Shown: in pieces, positions 3,317 through 61,961 of the stretch
How positions within the stretch are numbered: position 1 is the first letter of the stretch
Layout of the letters: each line of letters starts with the position of its first letter
Origin: Actinomycetota bacterium
Lineage (GTDB): Bacteria > Desulfobacterota > Deferrimicrobia > Deferrimicrobiales > Deferrimicrobiaceae
Reading direction: 5' to 3'
Assembly (NCBI GenBank): GCA_050258195.1
Contig: JBLMYI010000015.1
Location: 1 to 61,986 of the forward strand
DNA: 61,986 bases
The notes under the pieces: generated by a model
Seen by the model: only the letters and a program-made list of their open reading frames with translations
Database searches by the model: none
Told to the model about the DNA's origin: nothing
Made by a program: the position numbers and the translations under genes

Positions 3317-3325
3317 TTGGGACAC

Positions 3326-4276
3326 TTAGTCCCCATTTCCGGGTTCGCTCCCCTCCCCCGCCGCCTTCGAGGCGGCGTCCGACAGCGCGGCCTCGGTCAC
3401 GTCGGGGGGGAGCTCCCCTTCCTTCGCGGAAGGGCCTTCCGCCGCCGGCCCGGCTTCCGCGAGGCTCGCGGCGAGCTCGTCCCCGCCCTGATCGATTGCG
3501 CCGTCGGGGATCGCCGGCAGGTGCATCGTCGGACGGCCTTCCTCGACCGGCGTGCCGGTGGAGGCGGCGAGGAAATCCTCGATATCCCGCATCGACGGCA
3601 GCTCGGAGAGGGAACCGAGGCTGAACGTCTCCATGAACTCCCGGGTGGTGCCGAAGAGGAACGGCTTGCCGGGGACGTCCTTCTTCCCCATCACCCTCAC
3701 GAGCCGCCGGTCCATCAGCGTCTTCAACGACCCGGCGCAATCCACGCCGCGGATCTGTTCGATCTCCTGCCGGGTCAGCGGCTGCTTGTAGGCGATGATC
3801 GCCAGCGTCTCCAGCGCGGCGCGGGAGAAGCGCGGCGGCTTCACGTCGAAGAGGCGGCGCACGTGCTCCTGGTTCGCCGGGCTGGTGCGGAACTGGAACC
3901 CCTTCGCCACTTCCTCCACGAGGATCCCCGAGGAGTCGACGGGATATTTCGCGCGGAGGAAGGCGAGCACCTCCCGCACCTGGGCGCGGTTGAGGCCGCC
4001 CAGCAGCTGGCGTGCCTTGTCGAGGGGGATCGGCTCGGTGGAAACGAGGAGGAGGCTCTCCAGGATCGAGGCGGCGCGCGGAAGATCGGCGTCGGGAATC
4101 GGAGGCTCCGCCTCCGCTTCGGAGGTCGAGCGCAGCAGTTCGTCGACACTGATCGGCTCCCCGGACGCCAGCGGCGCTTCCGGAGTGTCCCCGGACGCCG
4201 GCGGCGCCTCCGGCGTGTCCCCGGATGCCGGCGGCTCACTCTGCATCGGCGGATTCGGTTTCGGCGTCTCTTCCAT
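3326..4276 (-). CDS. scpB: segregation and condensation protein B, with long low-complexity N- and C-terminal extensions
   Basis: ORF 3326..4276. ILESLLLVSTEPIPLDK...ETLAIIAYKQPLTRQEIEQIRGVD...LMDRRLV is the ScpB double winged-helix pattern. Confidence 0.85.
   Translation of the reverse strand: MEETPKPNPPMQSEPPASGDTPEAPPASGDTPEAPLASGEPISVDELLRSTSEAEAEPPIPDADLPRAASILESLLLVSTEPIPLDKARQLLGGLNRAQVREVLAFLRAKYPVDSSGILVEEVAKGFQFRTSPANQEHVRRLFDVKPPRFSRAALETLAIIAYKQPLTRQEIEQIRGVDCAGSLKTLMDRRLVRVMGKKDVPGKPFLFGTTREFMETFSLGSLSELPSMRDIEDFLAASTGTPVEEGRPTMHLPAIPDGAIDQGGDELAASLAEAGPAAEGPSAKEGELPPDVTEAALSDAASKAAGEGSEPGNGD
4158..4237. repeat. in-frame 30-nt tandem repeat (about 2.7 units) inside the scpB 5' region
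   Basis: TCCCCGGA(C/T)GCC(A/G)GCGGCG..TCCGG.GTG is repeated. It encodes PPASGDTPEA PPASGDTPEA PLASGEP on the minus strand. Confidence 0.8.
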
Positions 4277-5049: not shown

Positions 5050-6030
5050 TCAGATCCGGACAGCTTCGCGGACCTCCGCCATCTTGGCGCCCGCCACTTC
5101 CCGCGCGCGGCGCGTGCCGTCCGCCAGGATGTCGCGAACGGAGACGCCGCTTTCCACGATCCGCCGGCGCTCTTCGCGGATCGGGGCGAGGACCTTTTCC
5201 ATCCCCTCGAACATCCACTTCTTGCACTCGATGCAGCCGATCCCCGCGGTCCGGCAGCCCGTGTCGACCTTCGCGATCGTCGCCTCGTCGGAAAAGATCT
5301 TGTGGTAGGAGAAGACGTTGCAGATCTCGGGGTTCCCCGGGTCGGTGCGCCGCTGTCTCGCCGGGTCGGTGACCATCGGCTTCACCTTGGCCCAGACCTC
5401 TTCCGACGTGTCGGAGAGGAGGATCGCGTTCCCGTAGCTCTTGCTCATCTTCCGGTTGTCCATCCCCATCAGCTTCGGCGTCTCGGTCAGGTACGCCTCG
5501 GGTATGGTGAGGCACTCCTTGTAGAGGAAGTTGAAGCGGCGGGCGATCTCGCGGGTCAGCTCCAGATGCGGAACCTGGTCGACGCCGACGGGGACCAGCG
5601 AGGCGTCGTACATCAGGATGTCCCCCGCCATGAGGACCGGGTAGCCCAGGAACCCGTACGTCTGCAGGTCACGGGTGGTCTGCTCCCGCAGCTGCTCCTT
5701 GTAGATCGGGTTGCGCTCCAGCCACGACAACGGCGTGATCATCGAGAGGAGGAGATGCAGCTCGGCGTGCTCGGGGACGTGGCTCTGGATGAACAGCGTC
5801 GCCTTCGAGGGGTCGATCCCCGAGGCCATCCAGTCGATGACCATGTCGTCGATGCTCTCGCGGATGACGGCGGAGCGATCGTACTCCGTGGTCAGCGCAT
5901 GCCAATCGGCGACGAAGAAGAAACAATCATTCTTCTCCTGGAGCGTCTTCCAGTTGACCAGGACCCCGAGGTAGTGCCCCAGGTGCAGTTGACCGCTCGG
6001 CCGCATGCCGCTCAAGACCCGTTTGCGCAA
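5050..6030 (-). CDS. trpS: tryptophan--tRNA ligase
   Basis: ORF 5050..6030. GQLHLGHY (HIGH-type) and KMSKS motifs, class I TrpRS pattern. TTG start follows GGAGG. Confidence 0.93.
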   Translation of the reverse strand: MRKRVLSGMRPSGQLHLGHYLGVLVNWKTLQEKNDCFFFVADWHALTTEYDRSAVIRESIDDMVIDWMASGIDPSKATLFIQSHVPEHAELHLLLSMITPLSWLERNPIYKEQLREQTTRDLQTYGFLGYPVLMAGDILMYDASLVPVGVDQVPHLELTREIARRFNFLYKECLTIPEAYLTETPKLMGMDNRKMSKSYGNAILLSDTSEEVWAKVKPMVTDPARQRRTDPGNPEICNVFSYHKIFSDEATIAKVDTGCRTAGIGCIECKKWMFEGMEKVLAPIREERRRIVESGVSVRDILADGTRRAREVAGAKMAEVREAVRI

Positions 6031-6054: not shown

Positions 6055-6753
6055 TTATCCACCCAGGATGAATGTCGACAGCGTGTCGACGAACCGCCAG
6101 ATTATACCAAGCGGCCCGACCATGAGAAGCAGAAGGACGATCAGCATGCCGTACCGCTCCACGGACGCCAGGGCCATCGAGGGACGGGGCGGGAGCAGGC
6201 CGACGGCGATCCGCCCCCCGTCCAGGGGAGGGACCGGGATCAGGTTGAAGACGGCCAGGAGCACGTTGAACTGCACCGAGACGGCGCACATGAGCGTCAG
6301 CGGAACCAGTACGGCGCGCGCCGGGGTGGTCGTCAGGGGGGCGGTGCCATGCGTCATCGCCTCGAGCAGCAGGGCCGGGTCGATGGCGGTGAGGATGCGG
6401 AAGATGATCCCCGAGACCGCGGCCAGGGCGAGGTTCGTGATGACCCCCGCGGCCGCGACGTAGATCGGGTCGCGCTTCTGGTCGCGCAGCAGGCGGAAAT
6501 TGACGGGGACGGGCTTGGCCCACCCGAACACGATCCCCGTACCCAGCAGGAGCATCATGGCCGGGAGGAGGATCGTCCCGAACGGGTCGATATGCGGAAG
6601 CGGGTTCAGCGTCACCCGCCCCAGCATCTTCGCCGTTGGATCCCCCTTCTTGTACGCGACCCAGCCGTGCGCCGCCTCGTGGAAGGTGATCGCGATGATG
6701 ACCGGGATCGCATATACGGACAGCTTGTGAAGGAATTGCGCTATGTCGGGCAA
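6055..6753 (-). CDS. site-2 protease (peptidase M50) family membrane metalloprotease
   Basis: ORF 6055..6753. HEAAHG zinc motif within hydrophobic helices, and LNPLPHIDPFGT is typical of the short M50 family. Confidence 0.8.
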   Translation of the reverse strand: MPDIAQFLHKLSVYAIPVIIAITFHEAAHGWVAYKKGDPTAKMLGRVTLNPLPHIDPFGTILLPAMMLLLGTGIVFGWAKPVPVNFRLLRDQKRDPIYVAAAGVITNLALAAVSGIIFRILTAIDPALLLEAMTHGTAPLTTTPARAVLVPLTLMCAVSVQFNVLLAVFNLIPVPPLDGGRIAVGLLPPRPSMALASVERYGMLIVLLLLMVGPLGIIWRFVDTLSTFILGG

Positions 6754-6789
6754 CCGTTCATCCTCTCTGTTCGGGAAGGCATTATTCTA

Positions 6790-6958
6790 CCACCAAACCC
6801 CGAAACCCAAACCCCAGAACCGGGACGTTCCTAGAACTCCAACAAAAGAGGGACAGAGATGGAAAGTGGGTACATTTTGTAGAAACCATGTCTGTCCCGG
6901 ATCTGGGGGAGTTCTAGGAACGTCCCGGTTCAGGGGTTTTCGTTTTCGGGGTGGGGGG
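6790..6958. repeat. nested imperfect palindrome: outer arms 6812..6840 / 6908..6936 (28 of 29 matches) and inner arms 6850..6862 / 6886..6898 (12 of 13 matches)
   Basis: Read directly. CCCCAGAACCGGGACGTTCCTAGAACTCC pairs with GGAGTTCTAGGAACGTCCCGGTTCAGGGG, and GGGACAGAGATGG pairs with CCATGTCTGTCCC. The right arm covers the stop codon and last codons of the 6914..9580 gene. Confidence 0.85.
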
Positions 6959-9580
6959 GAAGCGGGAGAGGAGGAAGGCGATCTCTTCCTTCTTGTTGCG
7001 GAGCTCGCCGGCCAGCCTCCGCTCGAGGAGGAGGTCGAAGATCTCCTTGAAGCGCGGGCCGGGGGAATACCCGAGCTCGAGGAGGTCCTCTCCGTTCAGG
7101 TGGAGACGGACGTTTTTCAGCTGGGTGAAATAGAGAGAGATATACCTTTTTATATCGGGATGTTTCGAGCGTGCCATCAAGTAAAGGATCACTTCGGTCG
7201 GCAAGGGGGAGAAAACGTCGTGAATCATTTTCCGGGAGATGGAGGGCGTCGAGAGGAGCCGAAGGATCACGCTTTCCACCTCATCCTTGCTGATCCTGAC
7301 CCACTCGCGCACCCGGGAGCGCACGCCGAGGTCCTTCGCCAGCTTCTTCGCATCGGCCGGGGAAAGAGGGTCGAGCAGCGCGAGGAACGACACCGCCCAC
7401 CCTTCGACCTTCTCGTCCAGGAAGAGGAGGGAGAACCAGGCGAGCACCTCCTGGGCTTCCCCGAGGAGCGCCAGGTGCGGCTTGTCGAGCGTCAAGGCGG
7501 GATGAATCGACGTCCCGAGACCGAGCTCGGACAGGCGCCGGATGATCCAAACCGGGTCTTTTTCTTTAAGAATCAACTCCAACTCACTGTATAACCTTGG
7601 CTTCGGGATCCTGCTCAACAGGTCCAACCGGACCGCGTTCCGAATGAGGTTCAATGTGTGCCGTCCGACGGTGAAGCCGAAGCGCCGCTCGAAACGCATC
7701 GCGCGGAGGATCCGCGTAGGGTCCTCGACGAACGACAGGGAGTGGAGCACCCGGATGATTTTCTCCTTGATATCCCGCTGGGCGCCGAAGAAGTCGATCA
7801 CCTCCCCGAACCCCTCGGGGGAAAGCCTCACCGCCAGGGTGTTGATGACGAAATCACGCCGGTACATGTCCTGTTTGAGGGAGCTGTACTCCACCGTGGG
7901 AAGGGCCGCTGGCCTGAGGTAATACTCCACGCGGGCGGTGGCGACGTCGACCTTGAAGCCGTCCCGGAAGACGAGCACCGCGGTGCCGAACTTGTGGTGC
8001 GGCCGGACGCGGGCGCCCTGCTCCTCGGCGAACATCTCGGCGAAGCGGATGCCGTCCCCCTCGACCACGATGTCCACGTCGAGGTTCTCCCCCCGCATCA
8101 CGAGGTCGCGGACGAATCCCCCGACGACGAACGCCTTCATCGCCAGCCGCTCCGCGCACTCCCCCGCCGCCCGCAGCAGGTCGAGAACGCGGGCCGGGAG
8201 CCGATCCCTCATCAGGTTCGACACGTTCTTGCGGGGCGCCATCGCCCCTTCCGCGTCCACGTCCTCCTCGGCGTCGGGATGCTCCACGTCCCGCATGTCG
8301 TAGAGGAAGCGGAGCAGCCCTGTCCGGGTGATGACCCCGACGAGCTCCTTCCCACGCACCACCGGGACCAGCCTCTGGTTCTTGCCGATGATGATCTCCT
8401 GCACCCGCTCGATCTCCGTTTCGGGCGCAACCGTCTCGTAATCGGCGTTCATGTACTCCCCCGCCCGCTCCTTGCCCAGGCCGTGGTACACCGCCTTCTC
8501 CACGACCTGTCGGGTGAGGATCCCCACCGCCCCGCCGCCCCGCATCACCGGCACGGCGTTGATGTTGGACCGGGTGAGCGCCTGGTGCACTTCGAGGATC
8601 GTCTCCCCCGCGTCCACGGTGCGCGCCGGGGACGCCATCACGTCCGCCGCCGTCCGCCGGGGGATCACCTTCTCCTCCAGCACGCGCAGGATCCGCTCCC
8701 GGATCTGGAACGTCGTCGCATCTTTCACGGTGGCCGACGCGGCGTAGGCGTGCCCGCCTCCGCCGAACTCGCGCATGACCGCGGCGGCGTCCACCTCGGG
8801 CTTCCGGCTGCGGGCCACCAGCACCACCCGGTCCCCCATCTGGCAGATGACGAAGAGCACGCTCACCGCCTCCATGTCGCGCAGCTTGTGCACGAGGAGC
8901 GCGAGGTCCCCCACGTACTCCTCCCGCCGCGCCTCGGAGATCACCACCTCGACCCCCCGGATCGTGTACGTCCGGGTCCCCTGGATCAGGTCGTACAGCA
9001 GGGAGACCTGTCCGGAGGTCAGGTCCCTGGCGAGGATGTCGGACACCTGGGCGAGCTTTGCTCCGCAGGAGAGCAAGTGCGCCGCGGCAAGGTAGTCGTC
9101 CACCGTGGTCGACGGGAAGGCGAGCGATCCCGTGTCCTCGTAGATCCCCAGCATCATCAGCGTCGCCTCGTCCGGCAGGATGGGGATCCCGCGCTCCTTG
9201 AGAATCTGCACGAGGATCGTGGTGGTCGAGCCGACGCGCCGGATCACCTCGACGTCTCCCTTGACGTCGGCGTCCTCGTCGGGATGGTGATCGTAGACGT
9301 GGACCGGGACCCCCGGACGGCCGATCAGCTCCCCGAAGATCCCGATGCGGGAGCGATTGCGGATGTCGACCAGGATGAGGCGGGTCACCTTGTCGAGGTC
9401 GATCTCGCGGGGCTTGCGCATCGGCAGGTTGTAGAAGGCGGACTGGACGAGGAACCCCTTGACCGTCTCCTCCTGCGACCCGGGCAGGACGCAGACCGCC
9501 TCGGGATACAGCTTGCACGCCGCCAGCATCGACGCGATCGTGTCGAAGTCCGCGTTCAGGTGGGTCGTGATGATGTCCAT
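6914..9580 (-). CDS. multidomain DHH/DHHA1 phosphoesterase - tandem CBS - poly(A) polymerase/tRNA nucleotidyltransferase family protein
   Basis: ORF 6914..9580. N-terminal THLNADFDTIAS and DHH-type motifs, then central CBS pairs. FVVGGFVRDL...DVDIVVEG and RRDFVINTLA are nucleotidyltransferase head motifs. Confidence 0.85.
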   Translation of the reverse strand: MDIITTHLNADFDTIASMLAACKLYPEAVCVLPGSQEETVKGFLVQSAFYNLPMRKPREIDLDKVTRLILVDIRNRSRIGIFGELIGRPGVPVHVYDHHPDEDADVKGDVEVIRRVGSTTTILVQILKERGIPILPDEATLMMLGIYEDTGSLAFPSTTVDDYLAAAHLLSCGAKLAQVSDILARDLTSGQVSLLYDLIQGTRTYTIRGVEVVISEARREEYVGDLALLVHKLRDMEAVSVLFVICQMGDRVVLVARSRKPEVDAAAVMREFGGGGHAYAASATVKDATTFQIRERILRVLEEKVIPRRTAADVMASPARTVDAGETILEVHQALTRSNINAVPVMRGGGAVGILTRQVVEKAVYHGLGKERAGEYMNADYETVAPETEIERVQEIIIGKNQRLVPVVRGKELVGVITRTGLLRFLYDMRDVEHPDAEEDVDAEGAMAPRKNVSNLMRDRLPARVLDLLRAAGECAERLAMKAFVVGGFVRDLVMRGENLDVDIVVEGDGIRFAEMFAEEQGARVRPHHKFGTAVLVFRDGFKVDVATARVEYYLRPAALPTVEYSSLKQDMYRRDFVINTLAVRLSPEGFGEVIDFFGAQRDIKEKIIRVLHSLSFVEDPTRILRAMRFERRFGFTVGRHTLNLIRNAVRLDLLSRIPKPRLYSELELILKEKDPVWIIRRLSELGLGTSIHPALTLDKPHLALLGEAQEVLAWFSLLFLDEKVEGWAVSFLALLDPLSPADAKKLAKDLGVRSRVREWVRISKDEVESVILRLLSTPSISRKMIHDVFSPLPTEVILYLMARSKHPDIKRYISLYFTQLKNVRLHLNGEDLLELGYSPGPRFKEIFDLLLERRLAGELRNKKEEIAFLLSRFPPTPKTKTPEPGRS

Positions 9581-9592
9581 GGGGTGGCTACG

Positions 9593-10483
9593 CTACGCCC
9601 GGGGGTGGTGTTTGCGGTGGATGTCCCGCAGCCGCTCCGGTGCGACGTGCGTGTAGATCTGCGTGGTGGCGATATCGGCGTGGCCGAGCATCGCCTGGAC
9701 CGCGCGCAGGTCCGCGCCCCCCCCGAGCAGGTGGCTGGCGAAGGAATGGCGCAGCGTGTGGGGGGAGATCCGAGGCTCGATCCCGGCCGCCAGCGCCCAG
9801 CGCCGGATCCGGTTCCAGAGGGTCTGCCGGGTGATCGCCTTTCCGCGGCGCGAGAGGAACAGGTCGCTCGAAAACTTCTTCCCCAGGAACGCCTGCCGCG
9901 CGGTGGCGATGTACTCCCCGAGAACGGCCAGGGCGACATCCGCGACCGGCACTACCCGCTCCTTGCCGCCCTTGCCCAGCACGTACAGGAACCCGGCGTT
10001 CGCGTCGACGTTCTCGAGCCGGAGCGTCACCACCTCGGAGGCGCGAAGCCCGGAGGCGTACATGATCGTCAGCATCGCCCGGTCGCGGAGCCCCTCGGGG
10101 GTTCGCCCGTCCGGCGCGGCCAGGAGCCGCTCCACCTGCGTGAGCGTGAGATATTTCGGAAGGGGTCGCCCGACCCGCGGCGCCTTCACCTCGGTGACGG
10201 GGGACGCGGCGAGGACACCCTCGCGCACGAGGAACCGGAAGAAGGAGCGCAGCGTCGAGACGTGCCGGGCGGTCGAACGGGCCGAGAGCCCGCCGTCCCG
10301 GAGCACCGTAAGGTGGTCGAGGAGGTCGGCGCGTCGGAATTTCCTCGCGTCGATCCCGCGGTCGGCGAGAAAGACGGAGAAGCGGAGCAGGTCGGCGCCG
10401 TATGCCGACAGCGTGTTCTGCGAGAGGCGCCGCTCCGTCTTCAAGTGGAGCAGAAACGCGTCGAGAAGGGCGTCGTTGTCCAT
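9593..10483 (-). CDS. xerD: site-specific tyrosine recombinase XerD
   Basis: Start is ATG 10483 (MDNDALLDAFLLHL), sharing TGATG with the upstream stop. C-terminus HTLRHSFASHLL..GADLRAVQAMLGHADIATTQIYTHV...HHPRA matches the XerD signature. Confidence 0.88.
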   Translation of the reverse strand: MDNDALLDAFLLHLKTERRLSQNTLSAYGADLLRFSVFLADRGIDARKFRRADLLDHLTVLRDGGLSARSTARHVSTLRSFFRFLVREGVLAASPVTEVKAPRVGRPLPKYLTLTQVERLLAAPDGRTPEGLRDRAMLTIMYASGLRASEVVTLRLENVDANAGFLYVLGKGGKERVVPVADVALAVLGEYIATARQAFLGKKFSSDLFLSRRGKAITRQTLWNRIRRWALAAGIEPRISPHTLRHSFASHLLGGGADLRAVQAMLGHADIATTQIYTHVAPERLRDIHRKHHPRA

Positions 10484-10983
10484 CAGTCGTTTCCCGGGAG
10501 GGGGATCTCCACGATCCGCGGCTCCATCGTGGCCAGGTCGACGATCGCGCACGTGCTCTTTCCCCGTATGAGGCCGCACGACTCCCCCGGGTTCACCACC
10601 AGCGCCTTCCCCACCCGCATCGTGAGCGGCCGGTGCGTGTGGCCGAAGAGGACGAGGTCGAACCGCCCCTGCCTGGTAAGCTCCCCCCGCAGCTGGTCAT
10701 AGGAATGCGCCAGGAGGATCTTCCGCCCGTCCACCGTTTCGATGCGCGGACCCTGCCGGAACGCCCCGCCGGTCGCTTCCTGCAGCCCGTCACGGTCGGA
10801 GTCGTTGTTGCCGAAGACCCCGCGAAGGGGGATCGCCGGATCGGCGTACCCCGCGAGGACAGCCGGCGAGCAGACGTCCCCGAGATGGAAGACCACCCCC
10901 ACCCCCTCGGCGCGAAAAAGCTGGAGTGCGGCCCCCGCGGCGCCCATGTGGTCGTGGGAGTCGGAGAGGATCCCCACCTTCAC
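10483..10983 (-). CDS. YfcE/MJ0936-like metallophosphoesterase
   Basis: GTG start at 10983 (VKVGILSDSHDH). DSHDH, GDV, GNND and GHTH motifs belong to the calcineurin-like phosphoesterase fold. Confidence 0.8.
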   Translation of the reverse strand: MKVGILSDSHDHMGAAGAALQLFRAEGVGVVFHLGDVCSPAVLAGYADPAIPLRGVFGNNDSDRDGLQEATGGAFRQGPRIETVDGRKILLAHSYDQLRGELTRQGRFDLVLFGHTHRPLTMRVGKALVVNPGESCGLIRGKSTCAIVDLATMEPRIVEIPLPGND

Positions 10984-17532: not shown

Positions 17533-17578
17533 GTGGAAGCTAGCCGGCCTTCCATCGACGAATCCTCGACGCAGCTTT

Positions 17579-17657
17579 TGGTACGGCGAGGGAGCGAAAC
17601 GAAGACGGGGCGGATGCAGCGGCGCCCGAACGCGGCCGCTATCATGAAATGGAGCAC
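17579..17657. repeat. partial (3'-half) relative of the repeat core in the HIT-mutS spacer
   Basis: Manual alignment to 41178..41262 gives roughly three quarters identity by eye. It contains the GCGGATGCAGCGG box at 17610..17622 and the ending AAATGGAGC. Confidence 0.5.
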
Positions 17658-18157
17658 TACGGAGTCAAGGGTCCGAAGACCGCCGACAGGCGGCGACGGG
17701 ATTCCAGCAGCGACTCGGGCAGCACGCGGGTTTCCTGGACCGGCGTCATGAAATTGGTGTCGCCCGCCCAGCGGGGAACGAGGTGGACGTGGAGGTGGTC
17801 GGCGATCCCGGCGCCGGCGGCCTTCCCCAGGTTCATCCCGATGTTCATCCCTTCCGTTCTATATTCCTGTTCAAGTACCCGTGTGCCCAGGGAAACCAGA
17901 GAGAAAAGTTCGCGGAGCTCTTCGCCCGGCAGGTCCCACAGGTTCGCCACGTGTCGACGGGGGGCGACCAGCACGTGCCCGTTGTTGTAAGGGTAGCGGT
18001 TCAGGATCGCCGCGGTGTTCGGGTACAGTCCGACAAGGAGACGTTCGGGGTCTTCGAGGTCTCCGTCCCCGACACAGAAAACGCACTGCGCCGTCCCCCC
18101 GCCCCCGCCCGCCCGGCGGATGTATTCCATCCGCCAGGGGGAGAAGATCCGGTCCAT
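17657..18157 (-). CDS. HIT family nucleotide hydrolase/transferase (Ap4A phosphorylase-like)
   Basis: ORF 17657..18157. Histidine triad HLHVHLVPRW and the CVFC motif near the N-terminus. Confidence 0.85.
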   Translation of the reverse strand: MDRIFSPWRMEYIRRAGGGGGTAQCVFCVGDGDLEDPERLLVGLYPNTAAILNRYPYNNGHVLVAPRRHVANLWDLPGEELRELFSLVSLGTRVLEQEYRTEGMNIGMNLGKAAGAGIADHLHVHLVPRWAGDTNFMTPVQETRVLPESLLESRRRLSAVFGPLTP

Positions 18158-18167
18158 CGGGTACCTC

Positions 18168-18446
18168 TCAGCCGTTGACCATTTCCCGAAGTTCCTTGCC
18201 GACCTTGAAGAAGGGGATCCGCTTCTCGGGGATGGCGACCTTCTCGCCCGTCTTCGGGTTGCGGCCCTCCTTCGCGCGACGGGTCCGCACGGTGAAGCTC
18301 CCGAACCCGCGGATCTCGATCTTTTCGCCGCGGTGGAGGGCGTCCTTCATGTTGAGGAAAACGGTGTCGACGATGACCTCGCACTCCTTCTTGGTCAGGC
18401 TCGTCAGTGACTCGGACAGCTTCTCCACCAGGTCGCTCTTCGTCAT
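18168..18446 (-). CDS. ihfB: integration host factor subunit beta
   Basis: ORF 18168..18446. MTKSDL..., IEIRGFGSF and GRNPKTGEKV...FKVGKELR. It lies downstream of rpsA, as in the classical cmk-rpsA-ihfB synteny. Confidence 0.88.
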   Translation of the reverse strand: MTKSDLVEKLSESLTSLTKKECEVIVDTVFLNMKDALHRGEKIEIRGFGSFTVRTRRAKEGRNPKTGEKVAIPEKRIPFFKVGKELREMVNG

Positions 18447-32274: not shown

Positions 32275-32530
32275 TCCCCGTATTTCCGACTGCGGGGGTA
32301 CCCCAGCAGCGCGTAGCTCGTACTGGGGCGCCCTCTCCTTCTATAGATACTCAGACTCCGGCTGCGCCGCCTCGGAGGGCGGGGCTCCGTTTGAGGCTCG
32401 CCGTGCGGAGAACCTGCACGGCAGCCCACCAGCCTCACTGTGCCCCCCGTTCTTCCTACGGCGGGGGTACCCCGGCAGCGCGAACCTCGTACCGGGGCGC
32501 CCCCCTCCTGCGGCGACTCCGCCGGGCCCT
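32275..32530. repeat. composite repeat: a solitary L-module (32275..32335) followed by a short-form R+L element (32355..32530) without the core
   Basis: Reverse-complement alignment to 42800..43005 and 40971..41345. GGGGTACCCC...GGGGCGCCC hairpin modules, CCGTGC..GCACGG hairpin, CCTCACTGTGCCCCCCGTTCTTCCTACGGCGGGGG. Confidence 0.8.
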
Positions 32531-32591
32531 CCTGTCTCGTGCGCCTTCAGTGCTGTCTTCCCGGTACGTTTCAAAATTCATGAATGCCGTT

Positions 32592-33713
32592 CTACGCCTT
32601 GACGGGTTCCTTTTCGCCGAGTACCCGGAACTTCGGCTCCATCGCCTTCATCCGTTCCACGATCCCCCCGTATTCGAGCTCACTGTACGGGAGCATCGCG
32701 GGGCCGAAGAACCCCTGCCGGCGAAGATCCTCGGACTTGGCGGACACCCGCCCCCGGACGTACTCCCAGTACGGGTGGTCGAATGCGTCGGCCGGCTCGG
32801 TGAACCGCCCATCCTTTACGCAGAAGGCGAGGGCCGAGACGATCGGAGGCCCGTCGAAGAAGGAGATCCCCGTGTTCATCGGCACCGGCATGAGCGCCCC
32901 ATGGTGGCTTCCCCGCATGAAGCCGGCGACCAGGTGGCCGATGGTGTAGGGGGCGAGCACCTCCCCCGTGGCGGGAAAGTTCCCCTGCGTCCGCACCAGC
33001 ATCACCGGGTCGTCCTTCCCGGTGTACTTCCCTGCGATGTTGTGGAGCCGGGTGGTGCTGACCACGGCCGCGATCTCGCCGGTGGCGCGGGAGCGGATGG
33101 ACTCGACGACGAACCGCTCCTGGTCTCGCAGCAGCGCCGCGATGTCGTAGAGATCCTCGGGCGCCGAAAGGTCGATCACCTTGTCCCCTTCCGTGTTCGC
33201 GACGTCCATGATGCGGAAGGTGAACCCCTTCCCCACCTTCGGCGAGAGGATGAGGCCGGAGGAGAACATCGGGTCGGCGAAGCCGAGGTAGGACGGCAGG
33301 TTGTACGCGCCCGGGTCGGTCTTGTCCGCCGCGAAGAGGACGAACGGCTCGTTGGGGCGCTCCTCGAACTCCATCTCCGCCACCGCGGGCCCCATCCCCT
33401 TCACGTTGCCCGAGAACGAGTCCTTCAGGAGGTCCTGCCCCGCGCCGTAGAGCCCTTCGGATTTCGCCACCGCGGTTCCCGCGATGAAGGCGTCCCACGC
33501 CAGCTTGTGGACCTTCCCGTTTCCCGTCCCCCCGGTATGGGACATCAGGATCGCCACGTCGTCCCCGGTAAAACCGACGTAGGCGTCGATCAGCAGCCCT
33601 TTCCCGAGCTCGGCGACCTTCGACCGCACCATTTCGAGCAGCTTCGCGCTCGGACGGATGTGCCCCCCGATGGAACCGATGTCCGCCTTGATGACCGACA
33701 GCGTGACCTTCAT
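32592..33713 (-). CDS. fbp: class V fructose-1,6-bisphosphate aldolase/phosphatase (bifunctional, archaeal-type)
   Basis: ORF 32592..33713. The hallmark N-terminus MKVTLSVIKADIGSIGGH and a length of about 373 aa match the FBP aldolase/phosphatase family. Confidence 0.88.
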   Translation of the reverse strand: MKVTLSVIKADIGSIGGHIRPSAKLLEMVRSKVAELGKGLLIDAYVGFTGDDVAILMSHTGGTGNGKVHKLAWDAFIAGTAVAKSEGLYGAGQDLLKDSFSGNVKGMGPAVAEMEFEERPNEPFVLFAADKTDPGAYNLPSYLGFADPMFSSGLILSPKVGKGFTFRIMDVANTEGDKVIDLSAPEDLYDIAALLRDQERFVVESIRSRATGEIAAVVSTTRLHNIAGKYTGKDDPVMLVRTQGNFPATGEVLAPYTIGHLVAGFMRGSHHGALMPVPMNTGISFFDGPPIVSALAFCVKDGRFTEPADAFDHPYWEYVRGRVSAKSEDLRRQGFFGPAMLPYSELEYGGIVERMKAMEPKFRVLGEKEPVKA

Positions 33714-33725
33714 TGGAGCCTCCTT

Positions 33726-34694
33726 TCAGGTTGGTCTAGCGGTTTCCTCATGACGGTACCATTCGACGAAACGGGATACGCCGCGCTCGATCGGCGTGCG
33801 CGGGTCGTAGGCGATCTCTTTCCTTGCGCGGGAGATGTCCGCGTACGTCAGGGGAACGTCCCCGGGCTGCGGCGGTTTGAAGCGCCGCACGGCGGTTTTC
33901 CCGCACGCCCTCTCGATCAGCGCGACCAGGTCCGAAAGGGCGATCGTCGCCGACTCCCCGAGGTTGTAGACCCGGTATCCCGGGGGCGCGGTCAGCGCGC
34001 CGAGGACCCCGGAGACGACGTCCTCGATATAGGTGTAATCCCTCCTTGAGGAGCCGTCGCCGTACAGGTCGATCACCTTCCCGTCCAGGATCCGCCGGGT
34101 GAACTTGTGGATCGCCATCTCGGGGCGCTGCCGGGGGCCGTACACGGTGAAGAAGCGCAGGGCGGCGACGTTCATCCCGTACAGGTGGCAGTAGGTGTGG
34201 CAGAGAAGCTCCCCCGCCTTCTTCGTCGCCGCGTACGGGCTCACCGGGTGATCGACGAAGTCGTCCTCGGAGAAGGGAACCTTCGCGTTGCCCCCGTAGA
34301 CGGACGAGGAGGAGGCGAAGAGGACCTTCGGGACCCGGCGCTCCCGCGCCCACTCGAGCAACCGGATCGTGCCGAGGACGTTCACGTCCGCGTAGCCGAC
34401 GGGATCGGCGACCGACGGGCGCACCCCGGCCTTCGCGGCGAGGTGGATCAACGCGTCGGGAAGGATCCCCTCCCCCCAGCGGGCGAGGGCGGAGGCGTTG
34501 CGGATGTCCCCCTCCAGGAAGGAGAACGCCGGGTGCGCCGAAAGCGGCGCGAGGTTGCGCTCCTTGATACGGCGGTCGTAGAAGGGATCGAAGTTGTCGA
34601 ATCCGAAGACGCGGTCCCCCCGCCGCAGGAGGGCTTCCGAAACGTGCGAGCCGATGAAACCGGCGGCACCGGTGACGAAGACGGTGCGGGGCAA
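33726..34694 (-). CDS. NAD-dependent epimerase/dehydratase (extended SDR, UDP-glucuronate 4-epimerase-like)
   Basis: ORF 33726..34808. VTGAAGFIGSH Rossmann and SPYAATKKAGE (YxxxK) motifs. Start set at TTG 34694, 6 nt after GGAGG. The longer ORF would run into the tRNA-Cys gene. Confidence 0.85.
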   Translation of the reverse strand: MPRTVFVTGAAGFIGSHVSEALLRRGDRVFGFDNFDPFYDRRIKERNLAPLSAHPAFSFLEGDIRNASALARWGEGILPDALIHLAAKAGVRPSVADPVGYADVNVLGTIRLLEWARERRVPKVLFASSSSVYGGNAKVPFSEDDFVDHPVSPYAATKKAGELLCHTYCHLYGMNVAALRFFTVYGPRQRPEMAIHKFTRRILDGKVIDLYGDGSSRRDYTYIEDVVSGVLGALTAPPGYRVYNLGESATIALSDLVALIERACGKTAVRRFKPPQPGDVPLTYADISRARKEIAYDPRTPIERGVSRFVEWYRHEETARPT

Positions 34695-34755
34695 TGATAA
34701 CCTCCGTTGGTCCCTCTCCCGTGCTCCCAATAATAGTACCGCGAACCGGAATCCC

Positions 34756-34785
34756 TTGACAGGGAGTGGTGCTCCGGAAAAGAAT
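34756..34785 (+). promoter_or_regulatory. candidate sigma70 promoter for the tRNA-Cys/tRNA-Leu pair (TTGACA, 18 nt spacer, AAGAAT)
   Basis: Read directly. The -10 ends about 9 nt before the mature tRNA-Cys 5' end. Confidence 0.4.
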
Positions 34786-34794
34786 ACCTGCTGC

Positions 34795-34869
34795 GGCGGC
34801 ATAGCCAAGTGGTAAGGCAGAGGACTGCAAATCCTTTATCCCCCGGTTCGAATCCGGGTGCCGCCTCCA
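34795..34869 (+). tRNA. tRNA-Cys (anticodon GCA), CCA encoded
   Basis: Manual cloverleaf: acceptor GGCGGCA/TGCCGCC, anticodon loop CTGCAAA, T-arm CCCGG-TTCGAAT-CCGGG. Confidence 0.9.
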
Positions 34870-34919
34870 TTCCTCCCTCGTACCGGGATCCCCCGTTTTC
34901 TGGTATCTTCCCTGTGAGC

Positions 34920-35006
34920 GCCCGGGTGGCGGAACTGGCAGACGCACGGGACTTAAAATCCCGAGGCCGCGAGGCCGTGCGGGTTCGATTCCCCCCCCGG
35001 GCACCA
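34920..35006 (+). tRNA. tRNA-Leu (anticodon TAA), long variable arm, CCA encoded
   Basis: Manual cloverleaf: acceptor GCCCGGG/CCCGGGC, anticodon loop CTTAAAA, variable arm GGCCGCGAGGCC, T-loop TTCGATT. There is one T-stem mismatch by my folding. Confidence 0.85.
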
Positions 35007-35089
35007 GCTCATCCGTTCGATGCGCTGGCGCGAAACGAGGGAATCGGACGCGAGCCGCCGCCGGGCGGGCAGCGGGACGAGTCCCTTCC

Positions 35090-35118
35090 TTGACGTATTC
35101 CCTGCAGGCGAATAAAGT
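35090..35118 (+). promoter_or_regulatory. candidate sigma70 promoter for the liv operon (TTGACG, 17 nt spacer, TAAAGT)
   Basis: Read directly, about 35 nt upstream of ATG 35153. Confidence 0.4.
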
Positions 35119-39626: not shown

Positions 39627-40962
39627 TCGCTTCCGCCTCGGCGCGGGCGACGTCCACGCGCAGGAGGAGGGCGAGCCCCGCGACGAAGAAGACCGCCAGC
39701 GAGAGGATCGCGACGCGGTAGCTTCCCGTGAACTGCAGCGCCAGCCCGAAAAAGAGGGGCCCCAGCCAGCTCGTCCCCCGCTCGCTCACCTCGTACAGGG
39801 AGAAGTACTCCGCCTCCCTCCCGACCGGGATCATCCGCGAGAACAGGGACCGGGAGAGGGCCTGGCTCCCGCCGAGGACGACGGCCACGCACGCCGCCAT
39901 CGCGTAGAACCCGGTCGCGTCCCGTAGCCCGGCGTAGGCGTAGACGAGCGTCCCCGTCCACAAAACGAGGCTGATCGCCACCGCCGTCTTTGCCCCCACC
40001 CGCTTCGCGAACGCGTTGAAGAGCAGGGCCCCGAAAAAGGCGACGAACTGGACCATGAGGATCGCCGTGGTCAGCGTCGAAACGGAGAGGCCCAGCTCCT
40101 CCTGGCCGAACTGGGACGAGAGGGCGATCACCGTCTGTATGCCGTCGTTATACAGCAGGTAGGCGCCAAGGAACAGCAGGAGCTGCCGGTGGCCCTTCGC
40201 CTCGGCGAACGTGCGCCGCAACTGTCGAAATCCGATGCCGAGGATCCCCTCCCCCGGGGGAAGCGGCCGCGCGGCCTCCCTGCGCCGCATCGTGGCGAGC
40301 GGCAGGAGGGAGAAGACGGCCCACCACGCCCCCGCCGATGCGAGGCTGATCCGGACCGCCTCGCCGCCCGTCAGCCCGAAGTCGCGCGCATGGGAGAAGA
40401 GGACCAGGTTCAGGAGGAGGAGGATCCCGCCCCCTAGGTACCCGAGCGCCCACCCCACGGAAGAAACGGCATCGCGGTCCTCCGAAGGCGCGATGTCGGG
40501 AAGCCAGGCGTTGTAGAAGACCACCGAGGCCCCGAAGCAGACGTTGGCCAGAAGGAAGAGCCCCCCGCCCAGCAGGTACCGCGTCCCTTCGAGAAAATAG
40601 AGCCCCACCGTCGCCGCCGATCCCGCGTAGGCGAAGAGGAACAGCATCGATTTCTTCCGGTGGGAGTAGTCGGCGAGCGCGCCGAGAAGCGGCAGGAGGA
40701 GGACCTGGAAGAAGACGGAGAGGGAAACGACGTACGGGAAGAACGACCCCGCGAGCACGGGGACGCCGAGAGGGTGCACGTACCCCGCGGGGTCGGCGGC
40801 GGCGCGGGCTACGGAGGTCAGGTACGGTCCCGTGAACACCGTGACCACCGTCGTGGAGAAGGCCGAGTTCGCGAAATCGTAAAAATACCAGCCGACCCGC
40901 TCGGGCCGGCCTTCCCTGGCTAGAGCGGCCATCTCCCCTCCCGGAGCCCCATTCTGCCACAA
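39601..40962 (-). CDS. MFS transporter, UMF1/Atg22-like family
   Basis: ORF 39601..40962. WYFYDFANSAFSTTV motif and about 12 hydrophobic segments. An alternative start is ATG 40932. The 3' end overlaps livF convergently by 26 nt. Confidence 0.75.
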   Translation of the reverse strand: MWQNGAPGGEMAALAREGRPERVGWYFYDFANSAFSTTVVTVFTGPYLTSVARAAADPAGYVHPLGVPVLAGSFFPYVVSLSVFFQVLLLPLLGALADYSHRKKSMLFLFAYAGSAATVGLYFLEGTRYLLGGGLFLLANVCFGASVVFYNAWLPDIAPSEDRDAVSSVGWALGYLGGGILLLLNLVLFSHARDFGLTGGEAVRISLASAGAWWAVFSLLPLATMRRREAARPLPPGEGILGIGFRQLRRTFAEAKGHRQLLLFLGAYLLYNDGIQTVIALSSQFGQEELGLSVSTLTTAILMVQFVAFFGALLFNAFAKRVGAKTAVAISLVLWTGTLVYAYAGLRDATGFYAMAACVAVVLGGSQALSRSLFSRMIPVGREAEYFSLYEVSERGTSWLGPLFFGLALQFTGSYRVAILSLAVFFVAGLALLLRVDVARAEAEAITAPGTTP

Positions 40963-40970
40963 TCACCACG

Positions 40971-41345
40971 GAAGGCGCACTTAACGTGAGGGTCCGGCGG
41001 AGTCGACGGAGGAGGCGGGGCGCCCCGGTACGAGCTTCGCGCTGCCGGGGTACCCCCGCAGCAGGAAAAACAGGGGGCACAGTGAGGCCGGCCTCCAGGG
41101 TTCCGTTCCCGAAGAGGCCGTGCACCGAGAGGGTCGATGCGCCGCCTCCGGCGAGGCGCCCGACCGAGGCGTACCCACGGCGGTACGGTGAGGGAGGGGA
41201 ACGATGCCGGGGCGGATGCAGCGGGCCTCGAATGCCGGGATCTGAGGGAATGGAGCCCTGGAGGCCGGTGCGCAGCCGTGCAGGTTCACCGCACGGCGAG
41301 CCACGAACGGAGCCCCGCCCTCCGAGGCGACGAAGCCGAATGGAG
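40971..41345. repeat. long-form mosaic repeat: L-module (40971..41087), TIR-bounded core (41088..41268) and R-module (41269..41345)
   Basis: Manual alignment to 61355..61715 (reverse complement), 42800..43005 and 32275..32530. See findings. Confidence 0.85.
41088..41268. repeat. 181-nt repeat core bounded by perfect 13-bp inverted termini CCGGCCTCCAGGG / CCCTGGAGGCCGG (MITE-like element or structured RNA)
   Basis: Read directly. A twin at 61432..61612 in opposite orientation differs by 7 substitutions and no indels in my hand alignment. Confidence 0.8.
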
Positions 41346-41414
41346 TGTCCCGGAGGCGTCGCGCCTTCCGGGAGCGCAGTTTGGACGTTGTCGTATTTGA
41401 TAAAAGGAGACCGC

Positions 41415-41834
41415 TTGGAGCATGTCGCCACCGTACGGGTGATCTTCGGCGATACGGACGCCGCCGGTATCGTCTATTACGGGAATTATCTTCGCTGGTT
41501 CGAGGTCGGCCGGGCGGAGTTGATGCGGCGGAGGGGGTTTTCGTACCTCGACACGATGGAACGGGGAGTGCTCCTCCCCGTCATCGAAACGGGCGCCAGC
41601 TATCACGCTTCCGCCCGGTACGACGACGTGCTCCGGATCCACGCGGAGATCCGTGACGTCCGGGGGGTGCGCCTGACGTTCGGGTACCGTATCGAGCGCG
41701 ACGACGGGGCCCTCCTGGTGACAGGGCATACCGTGCACGCGTTCACGGGGCGGGACGGGAGGCCGGTGCGGCCTCCCGTCGAGTTCCGCGCGCTGTCACT
41801 TACGAACGACATTTCCCGGGAAAAGGGGGCCTGA
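41415..41834 (+). CDS. YbgC/4HBT-family acyl-CoA thioesterase
   Basis: Within ORF 40986..41834. TTG start at 41415 follows AAGGAG. RVIFGDTDAAGIVYYGNYLRWFE is a hot-dog fold motif. Confidence 0.82.
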   Translation: MEHVATVRVIFGDTDAAGIVYYGNYLRWFEVGRAELMRRRGFSYLDTMERGVLLPVIETGASYHASARYDDVLRIHAEIRDVRGVRLTFGYRIERDDGALLVTGHTVHAFTGRDGRPVRPPVEFRALSLTNDISREKGA

Positions 41835-42793: not shown

Positions 42794-42799
42794 AAACGG

Positions 42800-43005
42800 A
42801 GTGGGAAGGCAGCACGGAGGGGGTACGCAACAGGAGGCTCCGGCGGAGTAGCCGCAGGAGGGGGGCGCCCCGGTACGAGCTTCGCGCTGCCGGGGTACCC
42901 CCGCCGTAGGAAGAACGGGGGGCACAGTGAGGTAAAGCGCAGCCGTGCAGGTTCACCGCACGGCGAGCCACGAACGGAGCCGCCTCTCCGAGGCGGCGTA
43001 GCCGA
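42800..43005. repeat. short-form mosaic repeat (L+R modules, no core) in the glpX-oorD spacer
   Basis: Aligns with 40971..41087 plus 41269..41345. The junction CACAGTGAGG-taaa-GCGCAGCCGTGCAGG marks the empty core site. Confidence 0.8.
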
Positions 43006-43016
43006 AGGGGGAACGG

Positions 43017-53225: not shown

Positions 53226-53347
53226 GGGGCACCCCAGCACGAGCTTCGCGCTGCCGGGGTACCCCCACTGCAGGAAAAACGGGGGGCACCCCAGTACGAG
53301 CTTCGCGTTGCTGGGGTACCCCCACTGTAGGAAAAACGGGGGGCACC
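53226..53347. repeat. tandem 57-nt L-module hairpin units (2 full units plus an 8-nt start of a third) filling the cobO-mutase spacer
   Basis: GGGGCACCCCAG.ACGAGCTTCGCG.TGC.GGGGTACCCCCACTG.AGGAAAAACGG occurs at 53226..53282 and 53283..53339, then GGGGCACC and ATG 53348. Confidence 0.85.
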
Positions 53348-55030
<1,683 letters not shown>

Positions 55031-60535: not shown

Positions 60536-61342
60536 ATGCCGCGCACAATCGATTTCACCGACACGGAGTTCATGATCGCCCAGGGGGCCCGCCTGATCGA
60601 GGACGGCAAGACGATCTTCGTCGGATGGGGCATTCCGCAGGTGGTCGCCATGCTGGCGCAAAGGCTGTACGTCCCCAACGTGACCCAGCTGTTCGAGTTC
60701 GGCGCGATCGGGCCGCAATCCATCCTCCCCTTCGTCCGCGGAACGATGGGGGGGCCCCAGAACACGTACCGGTCGCTGCAGTGGCTCAACATGAACTGGG
60801 CCTTCTCTTACTCCGCCACGGGCTACATGGATTACGGGATGTTGGGGGCGCTCCAGGTCGACCCGTACGGCAACATCAACTCGACCCACCTCGGGGGAAC
60901 CTTCGCCCGCCCATCGCGCCGGTTCGCCGGGAGCGGCGGAGGGAACCAGGTGGCCTCGCACTGCTGGAAGACGATCATCGTCATCAAGCACGAGGGACGC
61001 CGTTTCGTCCCGAAGCTCGATTTCCTCACCTCCCCCGGATACCTCGACGGTCCGGGGGCCCGCGAGAAAACCGGGCTGCCCCGCGGTACGGGACCGCACC
61101 GCGTGGTCACCTCGAAGGCCCTCTTCGGATTCGACGAGGGGACCCGGAAGATGACCCTCCTGTCGGTCCTCCGGGGGGTTTCCGTGGAGGAGGTCGTGAA
61201 GGATATGGCGTTCCGCCCTCTCCTGGCGCCCGAGATCGGGGAGATCCCGCCGCCGACGGACGATGAACTCCGCGTGCTGCGCGAGGAGATCGACCCCGAC
61301 CGGTTCATCATCCGCGGGGAGAAGATGTCCGCAACCGGCTGA
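60536..61342 (+). CDS. CoA-transferase subunit B (GctB-like)
   Basis: ORF 60536..61342. Called subunit B from position directly after subunit A and its size; no diagnostic motif was checked. Confidence 0.75.
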   Translation: MPRTIDFTDTEFMIAQGARLIEDGKTIFVGWGIPQVVAMLAQRLYVPNVTQLFEFGAIGPQSILPFVRGTMGGPQNTYRSLQWLNMNWAFSYSATGYMDYGMLGALQVDPYGNINSTHLGGTFARPSRRFAGSGGGNQVASHCWKTIIVIKHEGRRFVPKLDFLTSPGYLDGPGAREKTGLPRGTGPHRVVTSKALFGFDEGTRKMTLLSVLRGVSVEEVVKDMAFRPLLAPEIGEIPPPTDDELRVLREEIDPDRFIIRGEKMSATG

Positions 61343-61354
61343 CCCCCCGGGACT

Positions 61355-61715
61355 CCCCCTTCGGCTGCGTCTCCTCGGAGGGCGGGGCTCCGTTCGTGGC
61401 TCGCCGTGCGATGAACCTGCACGGCTGCGCTCCGGCCTCCAAGGCTCCATTCCCTCAGATCCCGGCATTCGAGGCCCGCTGCATCCGCCCCGGCGTCGTT
61501 CCCCTCCCTCACCGTACCGCAGTGGGTACGCCTCGGTTGGGCGCCTCGCCGGATGCGGCTCATCGACCCTCTCGGTGCACGGCCTCTGCGGGAACGGAAC
61601 CCTGGAGGCCGGCCTCACTGTGCCCCCCGTTCTTCCTACGGCGGGGGTACCCCAGGGAGTGTAGTTAGTCCGGGAGTGGGGCGCCCCCCCTCCTCCGGCG
61701 ACTCCGCCGGAATTC
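61355..61715. repeat. long-form mosaic repeat in inverted orientation: R-module, core 61432..61612, and L-module with a variant hairpin loop
   Basis: Its reverse complement aligns with 40971..41345. TIRs are CCGGCCTCCAAGG (61432..61444) and CCCTGGAGGCCGG (61600..61612). Confidence 0.85.
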
Positions 61716-61773
61716 CGTGTCGACGCAACTGACACTATGTACCCGGACCCGTGCAGCAGGTTCCCGCCATCGA

Positions 61774-61789
61774 TGTAGAATATAGGACA
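61774..61789 (+). promoter_or_regulatory. TGT-N10-ACA dyad in an AT-rich patch (possible enhancer-binding-protein site)
   Basis: TGTagaatataggACA read directly. It lies about 115-130 nt upstream of the sigma54-like element. The motif carries little information. Confidence 0.25.
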
Positions 61790-61901
61790 TTTTTGTAGCA
61801 TCCCCGGGCCGAGCTTCCCCCTCTCCCTCCGCAGCGCCGCACCCGAATATCCCCTTTCCTTTCAAACTATTGCAACAGTGCATCCGACGGTTTTCCCCCG
61901 A

Positions 61902-61916
61902 TGGCACGGCCGATGC
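61902..61916 (+). promoter_or_regulatory. candidate sigma54 (-24/-12) promoter TGGCACGgccgATGCT
   Basis: Compared with the consensus TGGCACG-N4-TTGCW there is one mismatch. It lies about 45 nt upstream of ATG 61962, which has a GGAGGG SD. Confidence 0.45.
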
Positions 61917-61961
61917 TCTCCCCCGGGACGACGCGACATTTCATCTTCCCTGGAGGGCACC

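Follow-up and report, generated by a model that had tools for sequence, protein, structure and literature searches.

What kind of element is the 181-nt sequence that occurs twice, once on each strand, in contig JBLMYI010000015.1 of a Deferrimicrobiaceae assembly (GCA_050258195.1; all 61,986 nt are referred to below as the window)? In both places this sequence (the core) interrupts a longer repeat, which we call H. A sequence-only reading of the window had offered two explanations: a unit resembling a MITE (a miniature transposable element with inverted repeats) that has nested into another repeat, or an optional RNA domain closed by a 13-bp helix. Our analysis supported the first and produced no direct support for the second. 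The core is probably a non-autonomous mobile element, i.e. a MITE, nested in the central loop of H and representing a variant (type B) of a family of shorter elements (type A) that is abundant in uncultured bacteria of the Deferrimicrobium type. The nested MITE-like unit is favoured by its kinship to a family that inserts, by its three host contexts and two orientations, and by a core-free H at the site of copy 1. The optional RNA domain is disfavoured by the lack of any Rfam match and by the finding that H is itself a lineage-specific insertion.

The two cores lie at 41088-41268 on the plus strand (copy 1) and 61432-61612 on the minus strand (copy 2), exactly where the sequence-only reading had placed them, and its hand count of seven substitutions without indels agrees with BLASTN (96.13% identity over 181/181 positions, no gaps). 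The perfect 13-bp inverted termini that had been described are present in copy 1, where CCGGCCTCCAGGG and CCCTGGAGGCCGG pair without mismatch, but they are merely the outer tip of a palindrome that runs the full length of the core; copy 2 differs from copy 1 here by a single C>T change (CCTTGGAGGCCGG). The core had also been said to sit exactly between two motifs. It is indeed preceded by CACAGTGAGG in both copies, but it does not directly abut GCGCAGCCGTGCAGG, as a single base intervenes (copy 1 has T, at 41269, and copy 2 has A). The core-free short forms were found as described: the junction at 42933-42936 is GTGAGG-TAAA-GCGCAG, and that at 32432-32426 (minus strand) is GTGAGG-CTGGTGG-GCTGCC. 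In the window, 23-24-nt motifs taken from the core and its flanks occur three to four times against 0.00-0.01 expected from shuffled sequence, so that their recurrence is not due to chance. Both cores lie within a larger 310-nt inverted repeat (41047-41356 and 61344-61653, 94% identical).

We used a conserved interior motif, CGGRGCGGATGCAGCGG, as bait for relatives. The pattern scanned against a genome collection was a 17-mer and was too loose: only 8 of the 118 matches were true and 110 arose by chance. The true matches were in metagenome-assembled genomes (MAGs) titled Candidatus Deferrimicrobium sp., Candidatus Deferrimicrobiaceae and 'Deltaproteobacteria bacterium', i.e. the lineage MBNT15 / Deferrimicrobiota (PMC9386147). 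A more specific pattern scanned against metagenomes gave more than 120 loci among the matches listed. Element ends were set by anchored stem extension and a profile hidden Markov model; minimum-free-energy folding with flanks over-extended into neighbouring repeats. A 166-position profile made from clean type A copies was then searched with nhmmer against 803 kb of related loci chosen for carrying the element (given here by numbers such as L037), which yielded 169 matches that merge into 145 elements.

Two size classes were apparent. Type A elements are 162-167 nt long (canonically 166), begin and end with AGTG...CACT, have TTCATAAATA and TATTTATGAA conserved close to each end, and share the terminal consensus AGTG.....TTC.TAAATA. 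Type B elements are about 181 nt long, with an interior like that of type A and with longer, GC-rich termini. We recovered 63 distinct full-length sequences of type A and 26 of type B. Judged by its sequence, the core is a type B variant of the large, palindromic, 166-nt type A family: copy 1 aligns to profile positions 6-157 with E = 7e-28, and copy 2 matches with E = 1e-26. Two diverged relatives of the core are present in the window itself (3084-3326 and 17578-17658). The core is small (under about 500 bp) and non-coding, it has terminal inverted repeats (the perfect 13-bp termini of an imperfect palindrome), and the family is dispersed in many copies that are present in some genomes and absent from others at orthologous sites, all as in MITEs. 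A small protein product of the element's better-folding strand was considered and rejected, as the reading frame is broken or shifted in about half of the copies: the sole recurrent open reading frame (ORF; ATGCGCCGC..., 41-44 amino acids) is intact in only 29/56 copies of type A and 16/23 of type B, with a frame that differs by subfamily.

No Rfam family matches the core. At gathering thresholds Rfam 15, which includes 6S RNA, recovers only two tRNAs from the window, and at E <= 10 the region 40900-41450 gives only chance-level matches (CRISPR-DR29, E = 2.2; HOTTIP, E = 4.2). The 367-nt composite of H, its inserts and copy 1 (40990-41356) had no match at E <= 1e-5 in 5,426 Escherichia coli genomes and none in 72,556 plasmids, and a text search of the literature for the motifs was also negative. 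Since no description of the family was found in the searchable literature, Rfam, or the plasmid or E. coli collections, we regard it as a new MITE family, albeit of an ordinary kind.

Mobility is clearest for type A. In the empty-site search, each element's two flanks were joined and searched against the same 803 kb. Three filled sites (L037, L142 and L172) read GGC-TA/GTG...CAC/TA-GCGCCGCCATG, where slashes mark the element ends, and the corresponding empty site in the window (9490-9694) reads GCG-TAG-CG...ATG. L152 is filled as GGC-TGA/GTG...CAC/TGA-ATCCCATG, and the empty site, seen at 18099-18268 in the window and in L142, reads GGC-TGA-G.... The element at 3084-3326 in the window reads TGA/GTG...CAC/TTA, and the empty site in L172 has a single TCA. 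More generally, the trinucleotides left of GTG and right of CAC are identical in 18/68 type A copies (68 copies with different flanks) against 7.1 expected, and none of 5000 shuffles reached 18. Thus TA, TAA or TGA is found once in the empty and twice in the filled state, the target duplication that is typical of MITEs, and type A elements are demonstrably mobile DNA with TA/TAA/TGA duplications. The comparison of full and empty sites that had been proposed for the core showed duplications for type A and no clean one for type B.

The commonest flank classes are CTAA/GTG..CAC/TAAG and GCTA/GTG..CAC/TAGC, so that the duplication is TA or TAA, or else CTAG/CTAAG with the element ends one base further in. 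Duplication of TA, TNA or YTAR is a signature of DDE transposases of the IS630/Tc1 and IS5/Harbinger groups. Depending on the register chosen (TA, TAA or CTAG/CTAAG), the flank classes would fit either group, and the elements may be moved in trans by such a TA/TNA-targeting enzyme (IS630/Tc1-like or IS5/Harbinger-like).

The host repeat H is a small palindromic repeat in which the arms, CGGCGGAGTCGCCGCAGGAGGGGGGGC and GCCCCGCCCTCCGAGGCGACGCAGCCG, pair with each other and enclose a central region with a small hairpin (GCCGTGC-AGGTTCACC-GCACGGC, 41275-41297). At copy 1 the left arm (GGGTCCGGCGGAGTCG..GGGGCG) occupies 40990-41022 on the plus strand and pairs with the right end of H, which, together with the small hairpin, occupies 41269-41356 and was delimited by matches within the repeat family. 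Between them are the core and a second insert, the L hairpin module, at 41023-41079 (plus strand, boundaries uncertain by a few nt). The equivalent parts at copy 2, all on the minus strand, are the right part of H at 61344-61431, likewise set by repeat-family matches, and the junction CAGTGAGG, a variant L hairpin and the left H arm at 61613-61709. The 367-nt composite at copy 1 folds as a multibranch structure in which the H stem encloses the hairpins of L and the core together with the small hairpin (-226.1 kcal/mol, z = -8.7).

Core-free examples of this mosaic are also present in the window. H with L lies at 42794-43010 on the plus strand, between glpX and a ferredoxin gene, with the TAAA junction given above, and again at 32349-32571 on the minus strand, with the CTGGTGG junction and an extra L copy at 32276-32333. 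Two tandem L hairpins, part of the same mosaic repeat system, fill an intercistronic spacer at 53226-53346 (plus strand): they occupy all of the space between a stop codon at 53224 and an ATG at 53348, and the gene that starts there is methylmalonyl-CoA-mutase-like, as identified by eye from its N-terminal sequence.

Comparison across loci shows what is optional. The core was found at GTGAGG/.../(T/A)GCGCAGCCGTGC in 20 distinct loci, and the short-form junction GTGAGG-TAAA-GCGCAG in about 10 loci, with TAGA in place of TAAA once. In L215 the H junction is the same but the core is inverted. Another host repeat, H2 (CGCTCCACAGGCC...GAACCCCCCGC), carries the core one way round in L125, L162 and L167 and the other way round in L188 and L210, and where H2 lacks the core, the site holds an 8-mer such as GCTCTGCG. 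A third host context is seen in L164, L173, L178 and L224. The core has thus been found in both orientations and in no fewer than three host contexts. Likewise, H is contiguous and L missing in L153, L207, L218, L219 and L244, so that L is a second, independent optional insert in H. The L insert at 41023-41079 is preceded by GGGGCG and ends in GGGGCA, which could be a 5-6-nt direct repeat left by L's own insertion.

The modules nest in several combinations. L148 has type A elements in tandem and nested clusters (5459-5785 and 9874-10942), L172 has a type A element bearing two nested inserts (2469-2752), and L167 has a type A-like terminal-repeat pair around H2 plus a type B core (2920-3336).

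To place the core-bearing repeats in context, orthologous loci were retrieved via their neighbouring genes. At copy 1, seven relatives (89-95% GlpX identity) have the order PALP - apgM - thioesterase - glpX - ferredoxin - POR. Upstream of the thioesterase gene there is a 10-nt spacer in four of them and a repeat-free 50 nt in one (L240-L243 and L245). One of the two remaining loci (L244, 95% GlpX identity) has the H short form here, ...CAGTGAGG-GTAAA-GCGAGCCGTGCAGG... (GTGAGG-GTAAA-GCGAGCC), with neither L nor core, and the other (L239, also 95%) has an internally deleted H. The H and L at 42794-43010 are missing in 7/7 relatives, whose spacer is only 17-60 nt (L239-L245). At copy 2, the CoA-transferase B and MiaB-like genes of four relatives (88-96%) are 22-70 nt apart; in the window the CoA-transferase B gene is followed by 618 nt and then by a different gene. 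In L219 an internally deleted H precedes the orthologue of the gene downstream of copy 2. From these loci, H is a recent lineage-specific insertion and the core is an addition to H.

The fold of the element was examined on both strands. The core is an end-to-end hairpin of about 80 bp that spans the whole 181 nt. As RNA, the plus strand of copy 1 folds with -130.5 kcal/mol (shuffled sequences, -85.6 +/- 3.9; z = -11.6) and its complement with -108.1 kcal/mol; with DNA energy parameters the values are -62.6 and -50.9 kcal/mol. We call the better-folding strand the M strand, which is the plus strand at copy 1 and the minus strand at copy 2. Its unpaired residues are purine-rich, and the strand that is usually sense to the neighbouring genes is the worse-folding one. 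In an alignment of 13 type A and five type B representatives (MAFFT/RNAalifold), 16/48 consensus pairs, mostly in the terminal third, keep pairing through two-sided changes across subfamilies, which proves that base pairing in the element is maintained. The covariation cannot discriminate between RNA and DNA because the ends of a palindromic transposon must co-vary in any case. The interior of about 110 nt is nearly invariant, although part of this conservation is ascertainment, since the loci were selected with an interior motif.

Type A elements are placed with some precision relative to genes. Among the 57 copies flanked on both sides by 200 nt or more, the stop codon of a long upstream ORF with high G+C at third codon positions overlaps element nt 1-2 in 30 when the element is in the 'R' orientation, i.e. 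when the complement of the M strand is sense. In 19 of these 30, a co-directional ORF also starts within -17 to +39 of the other end; most such starts lie at +1 to +9, and some at -15, the ATG of the element's own TATTTATGAA. The opposite orientation gave 10 upstream stops and five downstream starts. The window provides an example at 3084-3326, where a plus-strand type A element, itself interrupted at about 3188-3257 by an L-like insert, separates two minus-strand genes. The TAA stop of the upstream gene (...GNGD-TAA) falls on the element's first base at 3326, and the S4-domain/RluB-like pseudouridine synthase gene that follows (3097, minus strand) takes its ATG and first five codons from the element (MNRNTQHLNRYLS, MNRNTQH...). 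In the element-free L172 the same gene starts MATERLNRYLS and overlaps the upstream stop codon. The second relative in the window, at 17578-17658 (plus strand), is a half, truncated type A element (profile positions 86-166) that lies between the stop of a HIT-family gene and the start of mutS; it is absent at the orthologous sites in L142 and L152.

The genome has a G+C content of 66%. TA is rare in it outside stop codons, and insertion at a stop regenerates one (TA+G, TAA or TGA); the placement of type A at stops may follow from these two properties. If co-transcribed, the element would fold into a rod-like hairpin of about 80 bp, the base of which would bring the upstream stop and downstream start codons together. 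Such juxtaposition at the stem base may be why the element is tolerated inside operons.

A number of observations weigh against a conventional MITE moved by cut-and-paste. Type B replaces 4-8 nt of its host (TAAA/GTAAA in H, an 8-mer in H2), and no clean target duplication for type B was found at H, at H2 or at the orthologous junctions of copy 1; one short form only (window 32426-32432, CTGG-TG) resembles the predicted empty site GTGAGG-CCGG-TGCGCAG. At both core-bearing copies gene order breaks exactly at one H edge and, because of this break in synteny, the copy 1 core may stem from recombination between H copies rather than from insertion in situ. The M strand beats its complement by 15-21 kcal/mol in 65/65 type A and 26/26 type B copies, a strand asymmetry that cut-and-paste of double-stranded DNA does not predict. 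The sequence-only reading had held that no functional strand could be assigned; structurally, the plus strand of copy 1 and its equivalents are preferred in every copy examined. On the M strand, G.U pairs far exceed A.C mismatches (about 263 against about 20 cells, summed by hand from the pair table). Without five family-wide G.U positions the counts are about 72 and about 20 and, when only singleton changes are counted by hand, about 20 and about 13, a difference that is not significant, and most of the asymmetry is thus inherited.

Conservation and the search for an autonomous partner also sit uneasily with a MITE. The element interior is better conserved than the termini, unlike in typical MITEs. 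Five insertions common to diverged genomes differ at 25/820 positions (3.0%), against 11.1% for their flanks and 19.5% for the fastest codon phase (Fisher p about 1e-37), which is not expected of a neutral relic; it could reflect purifying selection, gene conversion among copies, or repeated hot-spot insertion of the same subfamily. Across the window and 128 related loci, no ORF is enclosed by a widely separated pair of terminal repeats, nor does any transposase-like ORF family recur in the 740 kb that surround the elements. The ORF clusters that do recur near elements are housekeeping (dehydrogenases, ABC ATPases, histidine kinases), and the gene map of the window is that of an ordinary chromosome. 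No cognate autonomous insertion sequence was found in the window and the 128 related loci, about 0.8 Mb chosen for carrying the element, and a complete Ca. Deferrimicrobium genome is reported to have just five mobile-element genes (PMC9386147).

Part of this evidence would suit a REPIN-like element better, in which a single-copy domesticated HUH/Y1 (RAYT-like) transposase acts on one hairpin-folded DNA strand and no DDE enzyme is involved. Full-length hairpin asymmetry in every copy, also with DNA parameters, the preference for one orientation with respect to neighbouring genes (about 30 against 10), the strong conservation of shared copies (3.0% against 19.5%), the few mobile-element genes reported for a complete genome of the lineage (PMC9386147) and the absence of a transposase beside any copy would all follow. 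However, REP/REPIN and IS200/IS605-type elements make no target duplication, whereas here matching flank trinucleotides exceed chance and TA/TGA is seen once in empty and twice in filled sites. In addition, the arms are not built of two short REPs, about 0.8 Mb of selected DNA showed no RAYT-like gene, and the usual sense strand of co-oriented genes is the worse-folding strand. In these features the element departs from REP/REPIN-RAYT systems; a RAYT gene may lie elsewhere in the genome, but we consider this mechanism distinctly unlikely. A functional structured RNA, or an optional RNA domain in which the 13-bp helix closes a conserved rod and copies are kept by selection (for example, a device that ties initiation at a cistron to termination of the one before it, or an RNase III or antisense substrate), strikes us as very improbable. 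The highly significant fold, the covarying terminal stems around a nearly invariant interior of about 110 nt, the tolerance of G.U but not A.C on one strand with purine-rich unpaired residues, the evolution of shared copies about six times more slowly than fast codon positions, and the exact placement (stop over the first 1-2 nt, next start at -15 to +9) are what it would predict. Yet terminal covariation is equally expected of any palindromic transposon, and the singleton counts of G.U and A.C (about 20 and 13) do not differ significantly. Nor is there an Rfam match even at E = 10 or a promoter-like site around copy 1; the element occurs in both orientations relative to genes and hosts, with the better-folding strand usually antisense to the flanking genes. 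Moreover, close relatives lack it at orthologous sites, so that no locus needs it.

That the two window copies are mere local segmental duplications of a composite repeat, with the core having no independent existence, is so improbable that we set it aside. Although the 310-nt inverted repeat common to both copies includes flanks and is 94% identical, many metagenomes and MAGs contributed the 26 distinct full-length type B sequences, the core has at least three flank contexts and both orientations, and core-free host repeats are common. The sequence-only reading had allowed for only two copies within a duplicated segment, and the more than 120 loci among the matches listed, together with the nesting data, rule this out. 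There is also a smaller but appreciable chance that the nearly invariant rod of about 110 nt is not just cargo between transposon ends but a functional, strand-specific structured nucleic acid under strong purifying selection, either as the recognition structure of the mobiliser or as a device exapted by the host. If the former, the family would be a long-lived REPIN-like genomic symbiont that makes TA/TNA duplications and has an unconventional, structure-reading mobiliser. If the latter, ribosomes would pass from a stop codon to the next start over a 166-nt spacer, the two being joined at the base of the hairpin.

Comparison with known repeats places the family among structured MITEs. It resembles ERIC in being a full-length imperfect palindrome in transcribed intergenic spacers with TA at both termini, and in having longer variants that arise from inserts at fixed internal sites; co-transcription of ERIC affects mRNA fate (PMC3184786, PMC10969869). 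ERIC differs in its length (about 127 nt against 166-181 nt here) and phylum, and there is no sequence similarity, so that homology to ERIC is lacking; moreover, the element here often overlaps a stop codon and can donate a start codon. We know of no cognate transposase for ERIC. Correia (NEMIS) elements of Neisseria also have terminal inverted repeats, are multi-copy and gene-adjacent, and their mobility was inferred from related genomes. They have a TA target duplication, and are inverted at their ends only, with 26-bp repeats. Correia elements carry promoters and an IHF site, whereas the family here is a near-complete hairpin, and no promoter-like site was found around copy 1. Their RNA hairpin is a substrate of RNase III (PMC10969869).

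Chunjie of Geobacter uraniireducens and Nezha of cyanobacteria are alike in size (130-235 bp) and in their very stable predicted hairpins, about -98 to -130 kcal/mol for Chunjie; they too lie inside operons without destroying them, and comparison of occupied with unoccupied sites showed their mobility (PMC3184786). Chunjie is rich in A+T and has terminal repeats of 21 bp and direct repeats of 9 bp (PMC3184786), in contrast to the G+C-rich family here with its TA-centred duplications of 2-3 nt (possibly 4-5 nt). For Nezha a parent, ISNpu3, has been identified, and none was found for this family. The REP, BIME and REPIN mosaics and pneumococcal BOX/SPRITE repeats consist, like H, H2, L and the core, of palindromic modules nested in intergenic clusters, and REP/REPIN share mosaic nesting, strand asymmetry and the absence of a neighbouring transposase. 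REP units are 20-40 nt long, make no target duplication and are linked to RAYT genes, in contrast to the 166-181-nt hairpin here, which has a TA/TNA duplication and no RAYT gene in sight.

The family, together with H, H2 and L, explains a large share of the structured intergenic DNA in the candidate phylum Deferrimicrobiota (MBNT15). For annotation it produces spurious ORFs, shifted gene starts (as for the S4-domain gene at 3097) and synteny breakpoints in the window. It is also a transposon relic fitted to operon stop/start junctions and conserved about six-fold beyond fast codon positions, and hence a candidate case for persistence of bacterial MITEs via host-level function, gene conversion or continued re-insertion.

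The breakpoints at the core-bearing composites (window 40962-41423 and 61342-61960) have counterparts in L244 (2797-3000), L239 (1953-2078) and, on the reverse complement, L219 (about 6710-7040). At each, one flank matches relatives with H or an H remnant in place and the other flank is a different gene, which suggests repeat-mediated rearrangement. A simple 20-kb inversion between the inverted window copies was rejected, as it does not fit the gene neighbours in the relatives. An exact database look-up of the window GlpX protein returned no record. In L239 (2501-3739) the glpX stop codon is altered (GAATATCGG), giving a 412-aa ORF into the ferredoxin gene region, and this may be a sequencing error or a pseudogene.

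No sigma-70-type promoter was found around copy 1, and the one terminator-like site (40911-40890, minus strand) is outside the core. Beyond copy 2, a sigma-54-type promoter-like motif (TGGCAC-N5-ATGCT, about 61905-61920) lies upstream of the gene at about 61957 (MKKHGKIT...), the orthologue of which in L219 comes after the gene for an NtrC-like regulator. Between two minus-strand genes, at 6790-6958, lies an unrelated long inverted repeat with 73-nt arms that are 79% complementary around a 23-nt spacer; it may represent another hairpin repeat family. Finally, the called genes are all on the minus strand from 3.3 to 34.8 kb and all on the plus strand from 35.1 to 61.3 kb, and cumulative GC skew has its minimum at about 33-34 kb, beside tRNA-Cys and tRNA-Leu (34795-35006); the region at about 33000-35100 may be the replication origin or a major strand switch.

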